DNA of 60,573 nucleotides, counting the filler, from Basidioascus undulatus (lineage: Eukaryota): the NCBI GenBank assembly GCA_000826855.1. It is 5 parts of 5 records of this genome, joined end to end, with 100 filler letters (N's around TTAATTAATTAA, not from the genome) between each part and the next. Parts side by side here need not be neighbours in the genome. Positions count along the whole stretch, not along the records: positions 1 to 31,604 come from JTLS01000160.1; 4 more parts are not named here. The stretch is one strand, 5' to 3'. Below, in pieces: positions 18,437 through 59,142 of this stretch (the stretch's first letter is position 1; each line of letters begins with the position of its first letter). The position numbers and the translations under genes are program-made. The notes under the pieces were generated by a model that was given only the letters and a program-made list of their open reading frames with translations, had not been told where the DNA came from and made no database searches.

Positions 18437-19918
18437 TTATCTCCCCCCACCGCCCCGCGCCCACACGCGCACCTCCAAGCTCACGCCCGCCTTCGTGCCC
18501 ACCGAGACGTCCTCGGACGCGATGGCGAGCATGTGTTTCTGGGGGTGCCACGCGAGGGAGTTGGTCTTGCCCTCGCTCTCGAAGGTGTGCACAACTTCGC
18601 CCGTATGCAGGGACGCGATGGAGAGCGGGCGCTCATCGGTCCCTATTGCGATGTACTCGGAGTCGTGTGAGATCGAGAGCGACCGGACGAGTCCTCTGTC
18701 GGTCGAGGAAAGGGGTCAGGGTGGGGATGGGAGGGCGTAAGAGGGAGAGACAGACTCGATAGAGGAAATACAGCGTTGGCCGATCCACTCGTCCGTGGAG
18801 TAGATGCCGACGGTCGCGTCTCCGCCGCCAGTGACCATGTACCTGAGCGCCACGAAGCAGCAATGAGCTTAACCGGAAGAACACGAGCACGACCTGACCA
18901 CGAGAACACGTACTCTCCGTCCCGCGTAAAGTCGAGCACAAAGCAGCTGGAAGGGTGCGCCTCGACCTCATGCACGGTCTGCAGCGTCGGCCAGTCCAGG
19001 AGCTTGACGCAGCCGTTCATCTGCCCGACAGCAAAGATGTCGCCCTCCGGAGCCCACTTGAACTCGTACAGGTTCTGTCATGCGGCCCACAATGCCAAGT
19101 GAGCTTGGCCACGGAGGTGGAGCAGACGGAAAGATGTGATGGAGAGAGACGCACCTGTCGACTTTTCGGGATCTTGCTGAGCGGCTGGACGGGGGAGGGC
19201 GTGCCAGACGCGGCCGCGGCTGGAAGCATGCGCATGTCGAAGAAAGAGATGGCGTCCTGGCCGACGGCGAGATGCGTTCCGGACGGGTGGTACACGATGT
19301 TCATGCACTCAGTCGAGACAGGGATTACGGAGGTTGCGTTGGGCACTGGGGACATACAGCATGGTTGGGCGAATAAGCAAGTGACGGTAGTGGTGTAGGA
19401 AGACGGTGGGGAAGAGAAGACGCGAGGAAAAGAAACGTACCCCGGTCGTCCCACAGCCGCACTGTCTGGTCTCGCGCGACGGTGCTTAGGAGATGAGGGT
19501 CCGTTGGATGCCACGCTAGTTGGTTGAGGCGCGCAGAATGACCTGCCAGCGCAAGGCTCTGCTTGCCATCCGGATTTCTGGAGTCGAGCTGTCCGGCCAA
19601 ACGATCTGAGCCCCTGCAACGACCCCAACACAAAGGGAGCGGGACTCGGGACGTACCGCCTTCTCCGGCCATATCCGAACAGTCTTGTCATCACTGACGC
19701 TACCCAGGCGGCGCCCATCACAGGACCACGCGACGGCGAAGACCTGGGACTTGTGTGCGCGGGCGGACGCGAGGCGGAACTTGTTGAACTCGGGGGACTG
19801 GCGGGGCCGGGCGGGAGAAAGAGAGTGAGGATGGTGGAGCATGGCTGGGTTTTCGGAGGTGGCTGACCTTGACTGTCCGGGCAGCGAAGGTGAGGTGATG
19901 AGGGATGTCCGAGGCCAT
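18437..19918 (-). CDS. THOC3: WD40 protein, THO complex subunit 3 / Tex1-like
   Basis: VFAVAWSCDGRRLGSVSDDKTVRIW, GHSARLNQLAWHPTDPHLLSTVARDQTVRLWD, EAHPSSCFVLDFTRDG.YMVTGGGDA and VRSLSISHDSEYIA; repeat order typical of THOC3. Confidence 0.75.
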
Positions 19919-20191
19919 GCTGATTTGTTGGTTCGACGGACGCAGTGAGGAGATCGAGGGAGATTGAGCGCCCGAAGATTCGACCGCGACAATTATCAAC
20001 TCGAGCTGTGGCCAAATTTGAATGGCAAGGGTGAGTAGGGCAGTGTTGCGAAAGAGCTGCGAGGGGGAGTCGATGGAGGGAAGGCAAGAAGCGAGAGACG
20101 CGACGACGGCGCGTCGTGCCTTGCTCGTTCCTTGCCCTTTCACGCTCATCCACCCGCCCACCAGCAGACCACCGCCCATCCTCCGCCTGCA

Positions 20192-22214
20192 ATGTCCTCG
20201 GTCGGGTCACAACAACAAAAGGTGTCTGCGGCGTACACTCGCCGCGCGGGCCACGAGCTCGCCCGTCTCCTCTCGGCGGATGACTTTGGGCCGCAGGGGC
20301 ATGGGATCGCACTCGTGCAGAACATGGGCAACTCGCAGGTCCGGTTTCTTTCCCGGATGTCCGTGATATCTTTACTAAAGGTGTGGATATGGGACGATTA
20401 GCGCAGCTACCTCGAGCGCCACTTCCAAAAGAACATCGCCGCGCCCTGGGACCAGCTCTGCATAGAGCATGCGATCGTTTGCGCCTGCCTGCGCGACGGC
20501 GAGCGCGCATACAAGGCCGCTTTCGAGACGCAGAACAAGCTAGCGACGTAAGTTTTCTTGACTAGAGGCGATGAGGGCGTGGGCTCATGGGACTGGGTTG
20601 GAGATGGTAGCGAGTTCTTGCGGTGGTTCCAGGCGAGTGGGCAGAGGTGGGTGCTGCCCGTGCTGTACCAGGTGTGCAGGGATATGAGGCACCTGGCGGA
20701 ACAGGTGCGTGCATTTTACGAACGTCTCACTTGGAGTGCGCTTGCTGATCTAGCGTTGCACCTCGTATCTTCGACCTGCTCACCCTCGCTCACCTCGACT
20801 CCCGCTCACTTGCCCTCCATTTCTCACTTTCACTCGCTGCTCATCTCTCATCTGTCAGGCGGACGAATATCTCGCCCGCAAAGGGATCAAGACCTTTGCT
20901 CTCGAAGAGGCTGCCCGCTTCCTCAACAAAGCGTTCACCGCATGCCTAGCCGATCGGTACATTTCCCTTCCTCCGCTCCCCGACTCTCGCTTCCCTGCTC
21001 TCGTCTCATCTCCAACTATGCCAGAATCAACACCTACGATGACTCCCGAAGATGGGGCACGTACTACGTCGTCGGGCTGGTATTCAAGACATACTTCAAG
21101 GTGCGCTTCGCTTCCCCAACCCGCCCGTTCCTCTTCGCCCAGCATCTCACCCCGGTTCTCTTTCGATGCCATCAGGTCGACCGCATCCCTTTGTGTAGAA
21201 ACATCAATCGCGCGATCCAGGCCACGAAGGACCTCGCGCCGCTGTCGGCGTTCCCGAAGTCCCATCAGGTCACGTACCGGTATTACAACGGCGTGCTCGC
21301 GTTTTTGGATGAGAAATTCGAGAAGGTATATTTGCCTATATTCGCATTCCGAGGGGCCTGGCTGACTGTGACGCGATGGGTCCGACAGGCGGAGGAAGAC
21401 CTCAACTTCGCTTCCGACCACTGCCATCGCTCCTCGCACCGGAACATGGAGTTCGTCGCTCTTTCCCCTCCCTCGCTTTTCAGCTTCCATCAAAGCCATA
21501 ACTCATCTCGGCCGGACCCAGGCTCATCCTCACCTACCTCATCCCCCTCCGCCTCCTGCGCGGCACGCTCCCCTCCCGCGCGCTCCTCGAGCGCTTCCCG
21601 CGGCTCTCCACGCTCTACGATCCCTTCGTAGACGCCCTCAAGCGCGGGAACGTAAAGGCGTACGACGAGGCGCTCGTGCACGGGGAGCGGCCACTCGCGG
21701 AGAGCGGGACGTACGGCGTGGTCGAACGCGGGAGGGAGATCTGCTTGAGGGGATTGTTCCGGAAAGTGTGCGTCAATCGATTATACGGGTTTTTATGACG
21801 GAGCTGAAAAGGGGAGACACATACTGATTGATGTGACGTGGGGGGAGGACAGTTGGGAGTTCAACGGCCAGGAGAAGATCGTGCCCGTTTCTCTGTTCCG
21901 AGCTGCGCTGCGCACGGGGGGAGTAGACATCGAGACGGAGGAGGTCGAGTGCTTGTTGGCGGGGATGATCTTCAAGGTTCGCCCGCTCCTCCATACCACC
22001 CCTTCGCACAGCCTTCCCGCATCTGCCTCGCCTTCTCTTCTCTCTGTCTTGATAACCTTGGGTTCTGACTTGCGATGCGGTGCACTAGGGATACATGAAA
22101 GGCTACATCGCCCAGCCGCAGCAGAAGGTCGTTATGCCCGACTTCAAGCTCGGCAAATCGCACCCGTTCCCGCCTGTAGGGCAGGTCAGGCCTGCAGTGG
22201 CCATACCATTCTAG
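20192..22214 (+). CDS. CSN12: PCI-domain protein, CSN12/PCID2 (Thp1-related) family
   Basis: WVLPVLYQVCRDMRHLA, LEEAARFLNKAFTACLAD, SRRWGTYYVVGLVFKTYFK, FPKSHQVTYRYYNGVLAFL, ILTYLIP and EEVECLLAGMIFKGYMKGYI. Confidence 0.88.
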
Positions 22215-28709: not shown

Positions 28710-29609
28710 ATGAGTGGCGCGGCCCGCAACACCGCTCGCGCCTGGGATGATTGGGAAGCCGTGAGTCGGGACTGGCATTCGCGTTCATTCCCACCTTTCG
28801 AACCCCCAACACACCGCCCTTCTTTCCAGGTGTCCGACTCGACTCCGTCTTCTCCACCCGCTGCACCATCCCCCTCCGAGTTCCCTTCCCTATCCGCCGC
28901 GTCCGCCGCCGCCCCGCGAATCCTCGCTCGCCCCTCCCCGTCCCCGACGCCCCTGACGCTTGCGAACCTCACGCTTTGGGACCGCGCACAGTCGCATCCC
29001 AACCCCCAATCGGTTCTCCTGCCGCCGCCCGGGCCCTCGCTCCCCACGTTCACACCCCAGATCCTGAGGCGGCCGACGCCTGCGGGCGGCGACGGCGGGA
29101 AGGATGGAGGAAGGGCAAAAGGGGCAGCGATGACGCCTGAGGAAGTTGAGCGGGGTCTGAGGGAGAGGGAGAGGAGGTACAAGGAGGCGAGAGACAGGAT
29201 CATGGGCACTCCTGCGCCCGGAGAGGGAGATGGCGAGCGCGGGAACACGGAGGGCGGCAAGGGCAGCGGGGGCAGGGCAAAGAGCCGAGCGCGTCAGTCG
29301 CCGGCGGGCTCGTTGCCCCGCATTGCAAGCTCCGCCCCCGGCTCGAGGCCATCATCGCGCGGCGGGGGCGGCGGTGGTGCTAATGGGACCGGGAAGGCCG
29401 GAGGAGGGAACATGAGGGAGCCGCGAGGGCCGGACGGCACCGGCGCTGGGTTCGCGGCTTCTCGGGGAGGCAGGAGAAGGGGGAGGGGAAGGGGAGGCGG
29501 GAACGGCGACGGCGGCGGCGACGGGAGAGGGGGAGGCAAGAGGGAGGCGAGAGAGGTCAGGGATGGGCCGCCGCATTTGGCTGTCCTCGGACGGAGGGAA
29601 GTGGACTAG
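28710..29609 (+). CDS. SUZ-domain protein (RNA-associated, RGG-rich tail)
   Basis: WDDWE N-terminus; PQILRRP..TPEE..ERERRYKEARDRIMG (SUZ) and REPRGPDG..GF (SUZ-C) motifs; probably one intron near 28761-28830. Confidence 0.78.
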   Translation: MSGAARNTARAWDDWEAVSRDWHSRSFPPFEPPTHRPSFQVSDSTPSSPPAAPSPSEFPSLSAASAAAPRILARPSPSPTPLTLANLTLWDRAQSHPNPQSVLLPPPGPSLPTFTPQILRRPTPAGGDGGKDGGRAKGAAMTPEEVERGLRERERRYKEARDRIMGTPAPGEGDGERGNTEGGKGSGGRAKSRARQSPAGSLPRIASSAPGSRPSSRGGGGGGANGTGKAGGGNMREPRGPDGTGAGFAASRGGRRRGRGRGGGNGDGGGDGRGGGKREAREVRDGPPHLAVLGRREVD

Positions 29610-31100: not shown

Positions 31101-31536
31101 AGCATGAGTATATGTGCCAACCTTCGGCAGTACGGTACACAGTCCTCAGTACATAGTGTTGTCACCCAGTGCACCATAATGTGTATGCGAAACAGGATAT
31201 TAAGAAACAGGTGACGTATGGAAATTTTGAAAACACAGTGAAGGACAAATATGGCCGAGATGCGTTCACTTGAATTTTACACGCCCGCCGCCAGGTGATG
31301 GCGGCCTGTCCTCGACCGATGTCTGCTGGGTAGACAGTCTACACATTAACCATCACCTGCATATCTCAGAAGTTGTGTAATTTGTATTCTGGATTATTTA
31401 ACATACCCTGAGACCGTCTGCAGGCCGTGTTGGGGCCGAGACTGGCAATTCAAGTAGTTTCAACATACCTTATTTTGATTAAGATTTTATATGCCTTTGT
31501 TCTGTTACCACCAAGGGTACCTAAGTGGTAGTCGAG

Positions 31537-31604
31537 ATCAGGGGGTTGCAGGTTCGATCCCTGCGTCGGTCACGGCCGGCTGGCTCAATGGTAGAGTATC
31601 TGAC
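31537..31604 (+). tRNA. tRNA-Arg-like halves in inverted order (3' half then 5' half); anticodon lost at the contig break
   Basis: 31537-31572 reads A-TCAGG-GGGTT-GCAGG-TTCGATC-CCTGC-GTCGGTC-A (positions 38-73). After one C, 31574-31604 reads GGCCGGC-TG-GCTC-AATGGTA-GAGT-A-TCTGA-C (positions 1-32). Acceptor and anticodon stems pair between the two halves. Confidence 0.8.
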
Positions 31605-56634: not shown

Positions 56635-58528
56635 ATGGTAAAGGAAACGTACGCGATCGGACACTCGCCTGGGCGCGGCATGCGCTCGTGGCATTTGGGG
56701 ACGGGAGGGGAGAGAGATGGGTGCTGACTGTTGAAGATGGGGTGGTGGCGTGCACAGCAAGTTCTACGATCTGCTGGATGTCAAGCCGGATGCCACCGAC
56801 GCTGAGCTGAAGAAGGTACGCCCACCCAACTGATGTCCTTGGATTCCGCTGCCTGTACTCACCTCCCCCTCTACAGGCCTACCGCAAAAAGTCTGCTAGC
56901 CGCACGCTTCTTGATCTCTAGCTGGCATCATCTCTGACCTCGTCGTTATCGCTGTCCAGGGCACTCCGCTTGCATCCCGACAAGGGCGGTGACCCCGAGC
57001 TGTTTAAGGAGGTTACTCATGCGTGCGTGCTTTCCTTCATCTGGTGCGCAGTAGGTAGTGCTGGCTGAACCAGGACTTTTCCGGCAGCTATGAGGTTCTG
57101 TCCGACGACCAGAAGCGGAGTTTGTGCGTCGCTGGAGATGGTCCGGGTGTGCGTCCGGGAAGGGAGTGAGGGAGTGCTGATGGAGCTAGGGGTGGGGTGC
57201 GGTGTGTGCAGGTATGACCAGTTCGGCGAGGAGGGGCTGAGCGACCAGGGCGGCATGGGGGGAATGGACCCGGGTGACCTCTTCTCGCAGCTGTTCGGCG
57301 GCGGCTTCGGCGGGGGCGGGCGCGCGCCCCGCGGCCCGCGCAAGGGCAAGGATCTCGTGCACCGCATTGCCGTGTCCCTCGAGGACCTCTACAAGGGCAA
57401 GGTCACCAAGCTTGCGCTCCAGAAGCACGTCATTTGCCCCGGCTGCACCGGGCGCGGCGGCAAGGAGGGCAGCGTCAAGAAGTGCTCCGCTTGCGACGGC
57501 CGCGGAATCAAGATCGTCCTCCGCCAGCTTGGGCCGATGATGCAGCAGATCCAGCAGTCTTGCGAGGTCTGTGAGGGGACGGTGCGTTCTTCTTACGCCC
57601 CGCTGCTTCGTTTTGCTGGATTGGGAGGTGGACTTGAGGAGGAGAATGGAAAGCAAAGGGAGGGCGTTGGCTCAACGGGGCGCGTGGGCGGGGCGACGGA
57701 CAGGGCGAGATAATCCCCCCGAAGGACCGGTGCAAGCAGTGCAACGGCAAGAAGGTCATCTCGGAGCGCAAGGTGCTCGAGGTGCACATCGACAAGGGCA
57801 TGAAGAACGGGCAGCACATCACGTTCAAGGGCGAGTCGGACCAGGCGCCGGGGATCGAGCCCGGCGACGTCGTCATCGTCATCGAGGAGAAGCCGCACCC
57901 CGTGTTCAAGCGCAAGGGCAACGACCTTTTTGCCGAGAAGGAGATCGACCTCCTCTCTGCCCTCGGCGGCGGCTCGTTCACCATCCCCCACCTCGACGAC
58001 CGGGTACTCGAAGTCAAGTGGAACCCTGGCGAGGTGATCAAGCCTGGTGCGTTCGGTCTTTGCCCTCTTCCCAAGTCCCTTTCAACTTAAAATCCCGCGC
58101 TTTTCACTGACTACGATCTCCCCCGTCTGTCCGTGTTCGCAGGCTCGATGAAGCTCATCCCCAGCCAAGGCATGCCCTCGTACCGGTTCCACGAGCCGGG
58201 CGACCTTTTCGTGCGCATCAACGTCAAGTTCCCCGACTCGCTCGACCCCGCCGTCGTCCCGCACCTCGAGGCCGCGCTTTCGCCCCGGGACGTGCCCGTG
58301 CTCGACGGCGCGATGCACACGGAGGAGGTCGAGCTCCACGACCTCTCGGACCGCCAGCAGCACGAGCAGCACATGCGCGAGGAGATGGACGAGGACGAGG
58401 ACGACGAGCGCGGGGGCGGGCCGGGCGTCCAGGTGCGTTTCTGTTTGCCCCTCGCGCTGGATATCGCCCTACCGTGCTGACTTGTGGGGTGCTTGGGCGT
58501 TGGGGATTTGCAGTGCGCGCAACAGTAG
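56635..58528 (+). CDS. YDJ1: Class A Hsp40 co-chaperone (Ydj1/Mas5)
   Basis: MVKET..HPDKGGD J-domain, G/F region, four CxxCxGxG repeats and C-terminal CAAX box CAQQ*. Confidence 0.96.
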
Positions 58529-59006: not shown

Positions 59007-59099
59007 GACCAGATGGCCGAGTGGTTAAGGCGACAGACTAGAATGTGTTCTAACATCTGTTGGGCTCTGCCCGCGTAGGTTCAAATCCTGCTCTGGTCG
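59007..59099 (+). tRNA. tRNA-Ser(AGA) with 11-nt intron (59044-59054)
   Basis: GACCAGA/TCTGGTC acceptor stem, TGGCCGAGTGG A box, ACAGA-CT-AGA-A-[intron]-A-TCTGT, long variable arm GGGCTCTGCCC, GGTTCAAATCC, G discriminator and downstream TTTTT. Confidence 0.95.
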
Positions 59100-59142
59100 C
59101 ATCTTTTTCTCCCAATCCCCCACTTCGCTGAGACTACTTCGG

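Follow-up and report, generated by a model that had tools for sequence, protein, structure and literature searches.

A dispersed family of candidate circularly permuted genes for tRNA-Arg(ACG) in the fungus Basidioascus undulatus

The stretch of DNA analysed here (the window, 60,573 bases from the Basidioascus undulatus assembly GCA_000826855.1) consists of five pieces with N/TTAATTAATTAA spacers between them, of which the first, positions 1 to 31604, is a contig of 31.6 kb (JTLS01000160.1). At the end of this contig the two halves of a tRNA lie on one strand in reversed order: a 3' half is followed by a single C and then by a 5' half, which runs up to the true contig end at C32 (31604). An earlier note on this DNA had described this arrangement for 31537-31604, and it was seen exactly as claimed; the TACCAC/GTGGTA hairpin that the note had placed upstream of the 3' half is likewise present. 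The coordinates of all parts are given in Table 1. Further upstream lies an AT-rich stretch with the TATA-like word TTTTATAT, a possible TFIIIB site by analogy. As read from the sequence, runs of four or more T are absent between 31500 and 31604, so that no premature terminator interrupts the halves.

Table 1. Positions (window numbering) of the permuted tRNA halves, their leader and two open frames of the same contig
Feature	Position	Strand	Remarks
AT-rich stretch	31470-31492	+	TATA-like word TTTTATAT at 31485-31492; 13-36 nucleotides (nt) 5' of the ACCAC motif
Leader hairpin	31506-31530	+	TACCAC (31506-31511) pairs with GTGGTA (31525-31530); present in the minimum-energy fold
A-box-like word TACCTAAGTGG	31518-31528	+	One mismatch to the consensus TRGCNNAGTGG; 22 nt 5' of the B box
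Conserved leader AAGTGGTAGTCGAG	31523-31536	+	Exact repeat starts at 31523
tRNA 3' half	31537-31572	+	tRNA positions 38-73; B box GGTTCGATCCC at 31551-31561
A38	31537	+	
Anticodon stem, 3' strand	31538-31542	+	TCAGG
Variable loop	31543-31547	+	GGGTT
T arm	31548-31564	+	GCAGG/TTCGATC/CCTGC
Acceptor stem, 3' strand	31565-31571	+	GTCGGTC
Discriminator (A73)	31572	+	A
Spacer	31573	+	Lone C between A73 and G1; junction in contigs of three runs
tRNA 5' half	31574-31604	+	tRNA positions 1-32; A box TGGCTCAATGG at 31581-31591
Acceptor stem, 5' strand	31574-31580	+	GGCCGGC, then TG
D arm	31583-31597	+	GCTC/AATGGTA/GAGT
A	31598	+	
Anticodon stem, 5' strand	31599-31603	+	TCTGA
C32	31604	+	
497-aa open frame	19017-20510	-	
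SUZ-domain frame	28710-29606	+	

The identity of the tRNA was determined after the halves had been swapped by script, with positions 33-37 (TACGA) borrowed from the contig of another copy (see below). In this order they were called tRNA-Arg(ACG) of 72 nt by ARAGORN, with seven of seven acceptor pairs (two of them G.U) and five of five anticodon-stem pairs (one G.U), which bears out the mutual pairing of the halves described in the note. The same program called no tRNA among 3000 random 68-nt stretches of the window that were re-ordered alike, nor among 1000 shuffles of the two halves. By eye, the standard invariant positions and tertiary pairs U8, A14, G18, G19, A21, Y32, T54-T55-C56-R57-A58 and G53-C61 are all in place, and the tertiary pair A15:U48 bridges the two halves. 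Two features of a permuted tRNA gene in the sense of Soma 2007 are thereby found: a 3' half upstream of its 5' half, which together give a complete cloverleaf, and an intervening sequence between the discriminator and position 1, which here is the single C 31573.

Taken as it stands, the sequence gave no tRNA with ARAGORN, also not when introns were allowed in the last 4 kb of the contig, and neither ARAGORN nor Rfam found a full-length match to a tRNA model in normal order of the kind that an ordinary gene or a tandem pair contains. The Rfam tRNA model matched only 31574-31604, as a 3'-truncated hit (15.9 bits, E 1.2). A better match was obtained with the YrlA model (30.3 bits, E 7.5e-5; model positions 23-88 of 114); this score is below the gathering score of 69 and covers only the tRNA-like module, which leaves the unit outside the YrlA / Y RNA family (RF02553). 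Upstream of the 3' half there is no 5' half, the word of the D arm occurring once in the window at up to three mismatches, in keeping with what the earlier note had seen. Standard tRNA finders miss permuted genes of this kind. The minimum-energy fold of the stretch is the permuted cloverleaf.

The copy number of the unit was addressed with contigs from public sequencing runs, which are built from 31-letter words and are not raw reads (Logan contigs, k = 31). Two DNA runs from two studies, here called X1 and X2, both contain the contig end; together they gave 85 matched contig records (44 and 41), of which 16 were seen in detail. Single-copy depth is flat up to 31506, at 15.8 in X1 and 44.5 in X2, and over the last four bins the summed depth is 588, 3708, 1751 and 1397 in X1 and 1124, 8310, 5280 and 3936 in X2, sums that are not copy numbers, single contigs being more informative. 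A 53-nt contig identical to 31543-31595 has a depth of 298 in X1 (about 19 times single copy), a 42-nt exact contig one of 650 in X2 (about 15 times), and a 56-nt contig with one letter different is found in both runs at about 11 times single copy (175 in X1, 473 in X2). These high-depth contigs (records 6, 7, 15 and 16) span the junction of the halves with 30 letters to its left and 11-25 to its right, and in records 4 and 12, variant copies with five other letters, 31 or more letters lie on either side of it. The check that the note had proposed against misassembly thus came out in favour of the junction, which was found in contigs of X1, X2 and a third run, X3.

The contig that carries the window's own single-copy sequence ends at 31552 in X1 and X2, which sets the start of the exact repeat at 31523 (31552 = 31522 + 30). 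Different upstream flanks enter at 31523-31528 in at least 10 contigs of X1 (rows of 3, 2, 1, 2 and 2) and at least 8 of X2 (rows of 2, 2, 3 and 1). The contigs bearing flanks are 2.5-50 kb long and are at single-copy depth on the left (records 2, 5 and 13) as well as on the right (records 4, 8 and 12), so that the repeat must be a short one, scattered through the genome in the manner of tRNA genes. A larger transposon extending past the contig end was considered and is ruled out by the single-copy depth of both flanks. In 28 of the 44 matched contigs of X1 and 24 of the 41 of X2 the likeness of the core is 99% or more, and some copies differ at 5 of 57-71 letters. A unit of about 95-112 nt is present at ten or more loci, its copies probably number some tens, and it is neither a one-off relic nor a misassembly.

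Two minor observations concern these depths. Both high-depth junction contigs, the exact one and the one-letter variant, start at 31543 (31573 - 30), as expected if copies differ at the spacer base; the family may include two versions of the spacer, one at about 15-19 times and the other at about 11 times single-copy depth. The summed depth over the T arm (31534-31560; 3708 in X1, 8310 in X2) is about twice that at the junction (1751 and 5280), and other sequences with this T arm may exist, e.g., other tRNA families or lone 3' halves.

Past the contig end only one continuation is visible, in one contig each of X1 and X2 with identical letters. It departs from the window sequence at 31601 with the letters AAC TACGA C TTTTTT G, and the next 255 letters or more do not resemble the stretch; where the window has GAC, it has A30 for G30, then A31 and C32, and goes on with U33, A34, C35, G36, A37, a C and six T. 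Judged by its letters, this is the anticodon loop of tRNA-Arg(ACG), directly followed by a predicted RNA polymerase III terminator. The anticodon ACG, which the earlier note had guessed from the word GTAGTC in the leader, was thus confirmed by the CTACGA of this variant copy, and so was, again for the one copy, its expectation that a permuted gene would go on with the rest of the loop, a short trailer and a T-run and have no second 3' half. Among the matches listed for X1, X2 and X3, no contig runs from the 5' half through the loop and an intron into a second 3' half. The six loose-end rows of X2, which take in all 10 of its partly matched contigs, include none that leaves at 31572/73 or enters at 31574.

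The leader has properties that would fit a role in splicing. Its word GTGGTAGTC is complementary at eight of nine positions to G30-A37 plus the following C. The G at 31534, i.e., G(-3), is able to pair with C32, an anticodon-intron pair such as the register rule of eukaryotic splicing calls for, and the 3' splice site would lie in an unpaired AG/A (by hand and in the minimum-energy fold). The copies at other loci have ACCAC or ATCAC 12-16 nt 5' of GTGGTA with unrelated letters between (in three of three single-contig or agreement-0.92 rows entering at 31524-31528, plus mixed rows), and in one diverged copy, which enters at 31542, the printed flank begins CCACCA. Because this word keeps its position in flanks that are otherwise different, the conserved unit would reach back to about 31506. 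The word may belong to the leader hairpin, in which the change from C to T keeps a G.U pair, or may be a polymerase III start site; it resembles CCACAACA, which lies just 5' of the ordinary tRNA-Ser gene of the window. In passages of a review of permuted genes (PMC3978253), TATA-like elements are reported upstream of permuted tRNA genes and of some tRNA genes of fungi. A separate observation is that TCTGTTACCAC (31501-31511) resembles the end of the 5' half plus anticodon loop, TCTGACTACGAC, at 10 of 12 positions with one gap, and may be the decayed relic of an upstream 5' half left by an ancestral tandem duplication.

In the reading that we favour, and to which we give about an even chance, the unit is one member of a gene family for tRNA-Arg(ACG), dispersed in a fungal genome, whose genes are circularly permuted with a break at 37/38 and a one-base spacer. 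In favour of it are the canonical tRNA body (the Arg(ACG) call against none in 4000 controls), the recurrence of the same layout at many loci, and the visible continuation with anticodon loop, one base and terminator. It is further favoured by a leader that is conserved while the flanks are not and that is complementary to the anticodon loop, by the C32:G(-3) pair and the unpaired 3' splice site, and by the presence in the same genome of a tRNA-Ser gene with an intron at 37/38, which is spliced. The differing flanks are also the mark that the authors of tRNAscan-SE 2.0 use, in the relevant passages of their paper, for authentic fungal tRNA genes, repeats sharing identical 50-bp flanks (PMC8450103). 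The earlier note had weighed permutation against a tandem duplication in which the first copy was left without its 5' half: in the one visible continuation, from a variant copy, the six T and the lack of a second 3' half speak for permutation, while the view of a single gene has to be given up for that of a multi-copy family.

Under this reading each unit would be composed of an AT-rich upstream region, the start-site-like ACCAC, a conserved leader of about 14-30 nt, the 3' half (38-73), the spacer C, the 5' half with anticodon loop (1-37), a C and the T-run. RNA polymerase III would transcribe it from near 31507-31525 through the T-run. The RNA is predicted to fold as a cloverleaf whose acceptor end is closed by a turn of A73 and C and whose anticodon stem is open, so that leader and trailer would hang off the anticodon stem like a cut intron. 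The tRNA splicing endonuclease, directed to its sites by the mature domain together with the C32:G(-3) pair, would cut after A37 and before A38 and remove trailer and leader, and tRNA ligase would join A37 to A38 into a circle of 74 nt; if the acceptor end were opened first, two paired halves would result instead. RNase P would cut 5' of G1, the leftover spacer C could serve as C74, and the CCA enzyme would add CA. Such an opening of the acceptor end has a precedent in the YrlA RNA of M. smegmatis, which is cut by RNase P and gains CA.

Several observations weigh against permuted genes. X1 and X2 are possibly the source data of this assembly and would then not be independent of the window, and the right-hand end of the unit comes from one variant copy (A30), not from the window's own; a branch to an ordinary 3' flank, moreover, shares only 30 letters and could escape the matching. 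The stems carry four G.U pairs. The folding energy is no better than chance (z = -0.13; 76 of 200 shuffles fold as well or better) and was dropped as evidence. The one-base spacer would leave an acceptor turn of only two nt (A73 and C), below the 7-74 nt in the eukaryotic rows of the table in PMC3978253. The central helix of a bulge-helix-bulge has only three of four pairs, and the trailer is a C and a U-run, so that an outer helix is nearly absent. The B box precedes the true A box. A-box-like matches in the window number 29 against 24.1 expected, and the A-box-like word of the leader was accordingly dropped as statistical evidence and kept as a positional lead only. Patterns for the junction and for the 5' half with loop both had no match in prokaryote genomes and viral contigs, collections with few or no fungi. 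Finally, an odd contig of X3 (see below) hints at tandem or circular forms that the permuted-gene model does not predict.

The main rival, a serious one although we think it rather less likely, is that the unit is a tRNA-derived short repeat (a SINE-like retroposon, SINE standing for short interspersed element) or a tRNA-like non-coding RNA, of which the permuted fold, closed at the acceptor end and open at the anticodon stem like the tRNA-like module of bacterial YrlA, is the final product and which never decodes; ordinary tRNA-Arg(ACG) genes would then lie elsewhere in the genome. The tens of copies, some with 5 of 57-71 letters changed, would suit such an element, tRNA-derived repeats being reported from some fungi, and with the A-box-like word of its leader ahead of the B box it would have an internal promoter in normal order. 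The unaltered stretch has its best Rfam match in YrlA, but the score is far under gathering and the Ro60-binding stem is absent. A two-nt acceptor turn is awkward for RNase P, and the T-arm depth of about twice that of the junction and the 63-nt cyclic contig of X3 are also repeat-like. Yet a unit of about 95-112 nt leaves out the tRNA-unrelated body and the A-rich or simple-repeat tail of such elements, and its terminator follows immediately upon an intact anticodon loop. The head of a SINE has the tRNA in normal order, whereas here the order is permuted, and no body is seen, the one continuation having T6 after the loop; as to target-site duplications, no copy has both flanks in view. Every tRNA invariant that was checked is retained, as is a perfect CTACGA loop, and body and anticodon are in agreement. 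The core is at least 99% alike in most contigs while the upstream flanks are unalike save for the positioned ACCAC word, which looks like selection on the core and not like recent copying.

Much less probable, in our view, is a tandem pair or array in which a 5'-truncated copy is followed, one base on, by one or more complete intron-bearing tRNA-Arg genes, so that the permuted appearance would be no more than the seam between neighbours. The contig ends within the 5' half, so that the continuation of the window's own copy is outside view, and by contig depth there are about 26-30 copies of the junction against 8-10 contigs with left flanks; the upstream TCTG-TTACCAC (31501-31511), with its likeness to the end of the 5' half TCTGACTACGAC, would also fit an origin by duplication. 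The visible continuation, however, has T6 one base past A37 and then at least 255 unlike letters with no intron or 3' half, and T6 within an intron would stop RNA polymerase III, the terminator of the host's tRNA-Ser being T6 itself. Among the matches listed no contig joins a 5' half to a second 3' half, the sole record in two pieces (X3 record 17) leading from the D loop to the leader, and the right-flank contigs (records 4, 8 and 12) are at single-copy depth. That the junction is absent from the DNA and an artefact of assembly is scarcely credible, even though it lies at a contig end inside a repeat: it was recovered in contigs assembled independently for each of X1, X2 and X3, with at least 31 letters on both sides in records 4 and 12 and with 30 plus 11-25 letters at 11-19 times single-copy depth in records 6, 7, 15 and 16.

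The closest known counterparts are the type II permuted tRNA genes of algae. In the passages of PMC3978253 that bear on them, a 2014 review of Soma et al. 2007 and Maruyama et al. 2010 among others, 34 permuted tRNA genes are counted in six unicellular algae and one archaeon, type II (37/38) genes being those of Ostreococcus, Micromonas, the Bigelowiella natans nucleomorph and Cyanidioschyzon merolae; the portion of PMC13578239 that touches on the subject names them only from algae and a nucleomorph. As far as these excerpts describe the algal genes, the fungal unit resembles them in that its 3' half precedes its 5' half, that the tRNA is broken where a canonical intron would sit (37/38), and that leader and trailer stand in for this intron; also shared are the AT-rich or TATA-like region upstream and the T-stretch downstream, and a likely origin from an intron-bearing gene that was duplicated and lost its outer halves. 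It differs from them in its fungal host, in the tens of dispersed copies of one tRNA species instead of single genes, in a trailer of only C and U-run with a minimal leader-trailer helix, and in the A-box-like word of the leader; its spacer is 1 nt long, unlike the 7-74 nt of the red and green algal genes.

A spacer of 1 nt is known from the permuted tRNA-Tyr(GTA) of Thermofilum pendens (Chan et al. 2011, cited in PMC3978253), which differs, by the account in the same review, in that its host is an archaeon, its junction is at 59/60, its CCA is encoded and it is a single gene; how the 1-nt spacer is removed is posed there as a question. The tRNA-like module of YrlA (RF02553) likewise has, in this order and within one RNA, a T arm, a closed acceptor stem and a D arm, with a 7-bp acceptor stem in M. 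smegmatis, where, according to the sections of PMC4201824 on this RNA, RNase P opens the closed end and added CA completes CCA. The same sections have YrlA as bacterial or phage-borne and encoded beside Ro60, and a Ro60-binding stem replaces its anticodon arm, whereas the fungal unit keeps anticodon stem and loop. AfuSINE2 of Aspergillus fumigatus (PMC5063351) and the repeats of Serpula lacrymans (PMC8450103) are, in the extracts available, multi-copy and tRNA-related with polymerase III promoter words, as is the unit described here, but their tRNA part is in normal order. The SINEs of A. fumigatus measure 140-493 bp and have a tRNA-unrelated body and target-site duplications by the same extracts, against about 100 nt here; the Serpula repeats are flanked by the same 50 bp and their isotype conflicts with their anticodon, while here the flanks differ and the body agrees with the anticodon.

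Searches for relatives gave no further case. No report of a fungal permuted tRNA was found in the titles and abstract openings of the searched literature (subscription-only papers lying outside the search), and a literature search with a sequence word had no match. A pattern of T-loop word, gap of 22-40 nt and D-arm word was searched in metagenomes, and none of the 118 loci listed has the present junction: in 105 of them the T arm is within a complete upstream tRNA (ARAGORN), i.e., they are tandem tRNA genes of bacteria or phages, two with GGCCGGC have this word in spacer sequence, and the only one listed whose strands are complementary is likewise preceded by a full tRNA.

Up to now permuted tRNA genes have passed for a curiosity confined to a few tiny algae and one archaeon. 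In its discussion of the 37/38 type PMC3978253 holds that eukaryotes could plausibly have such genes, most being without them, and asks why this is so if the type is workable; a fungal family, if true, would answer why other eukaryotes seem to be without them. The host is perhaps culturable, and its splicing enzymes, ligase and RNase P would be from well-studied families, so that the case would test how RNA polymerase III handles a B box ahead of the A box and how a one-base acceptor spacer is resolved. Permuted genes that are missed would make a genome appear to be without, or short of, its main arginine tRNA. A bolder proposal, which we hold to be doubtful, is that the whole supply of tRNA-Arg(ACG), the main arginine decoder, may be encoded only by such back-to-front genes; the A-box-like leader before the B box would make the layout fit a TFIIIC-dependent cell, joining would be of the 37/38 splicing type, and RNase P would open the two-nt turn and leave the spacer C as C74. 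If so, fungi, and opisthokonts as a whole, would have their first such case, and a multi-copy tRNA family would for the first time have been taken over by the permuted layout. If the unit is a repeat instead, it would still represent a type of tRNA-derived repeat not yet described from fungi, with a permuted fold like that of YrlA.

The runs X2 and X3 were made from one sample; X3, which is only tentatively classed as a DNA run ("DNA?"), contains next to none of the words of the 2-kb query. Its record 17 is a contig of 93 nt that matches 31565-31588 and then 31526-31594, and a closed loop of 63 words would give just this length (63 + 30 = 93). In this loop 31526-31588 is joined head to tail via TGGTAG, a word found in both the leader and the D loop: the TGGTAG of the D loop runs into the TGGTAG-TCGAG of the leader and from there into the 3' half, and both ends of the record fall at the point where the path into the normal 5' half diverges. 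The 63-nt loop could come from a tandem array in the DNA, from a small circular RNA or from a template switch of reverse transcriptase at the direct repeat. Record 18 of the same run, which follows the path into the normal 5' half, comprises 31565-31604 plus five letters past the contig end.

Pfam matches in the pieces of the window are split across short open frames. No homologue at E 0.001 or better was found for the 497-aa open frame, which may have arisen by chance in GC-rich DNA. For the SUZ-domain frame of piece 1 the word-based search likewise gave none at that threshold, although Pfam and Atlas recognise SUZ. An exon of Ydj1 type in piece 5 (57069-57710) had 836 protein matches; the named ones among the best 120 are all fungal, and the closest of these 120 are from Microbotryomycetes and other Basidiomycota at 76% identity, a signal unlike that of the SUZ-domain frame, whose nearest Atlas clusters are labelled 'commonest Ascomycota'. 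The protein collection seems to hold no close relative of the host. The ordinary tRNA-Ser(AGA) gene of the window lies at 59007-59100 and has an 11-nt intron at 37/38, CCACAACAT directly upstream and a T6 terminator five bases past its 3' end; ARAGORN without intron mode reports it as an undetermined tRNA.

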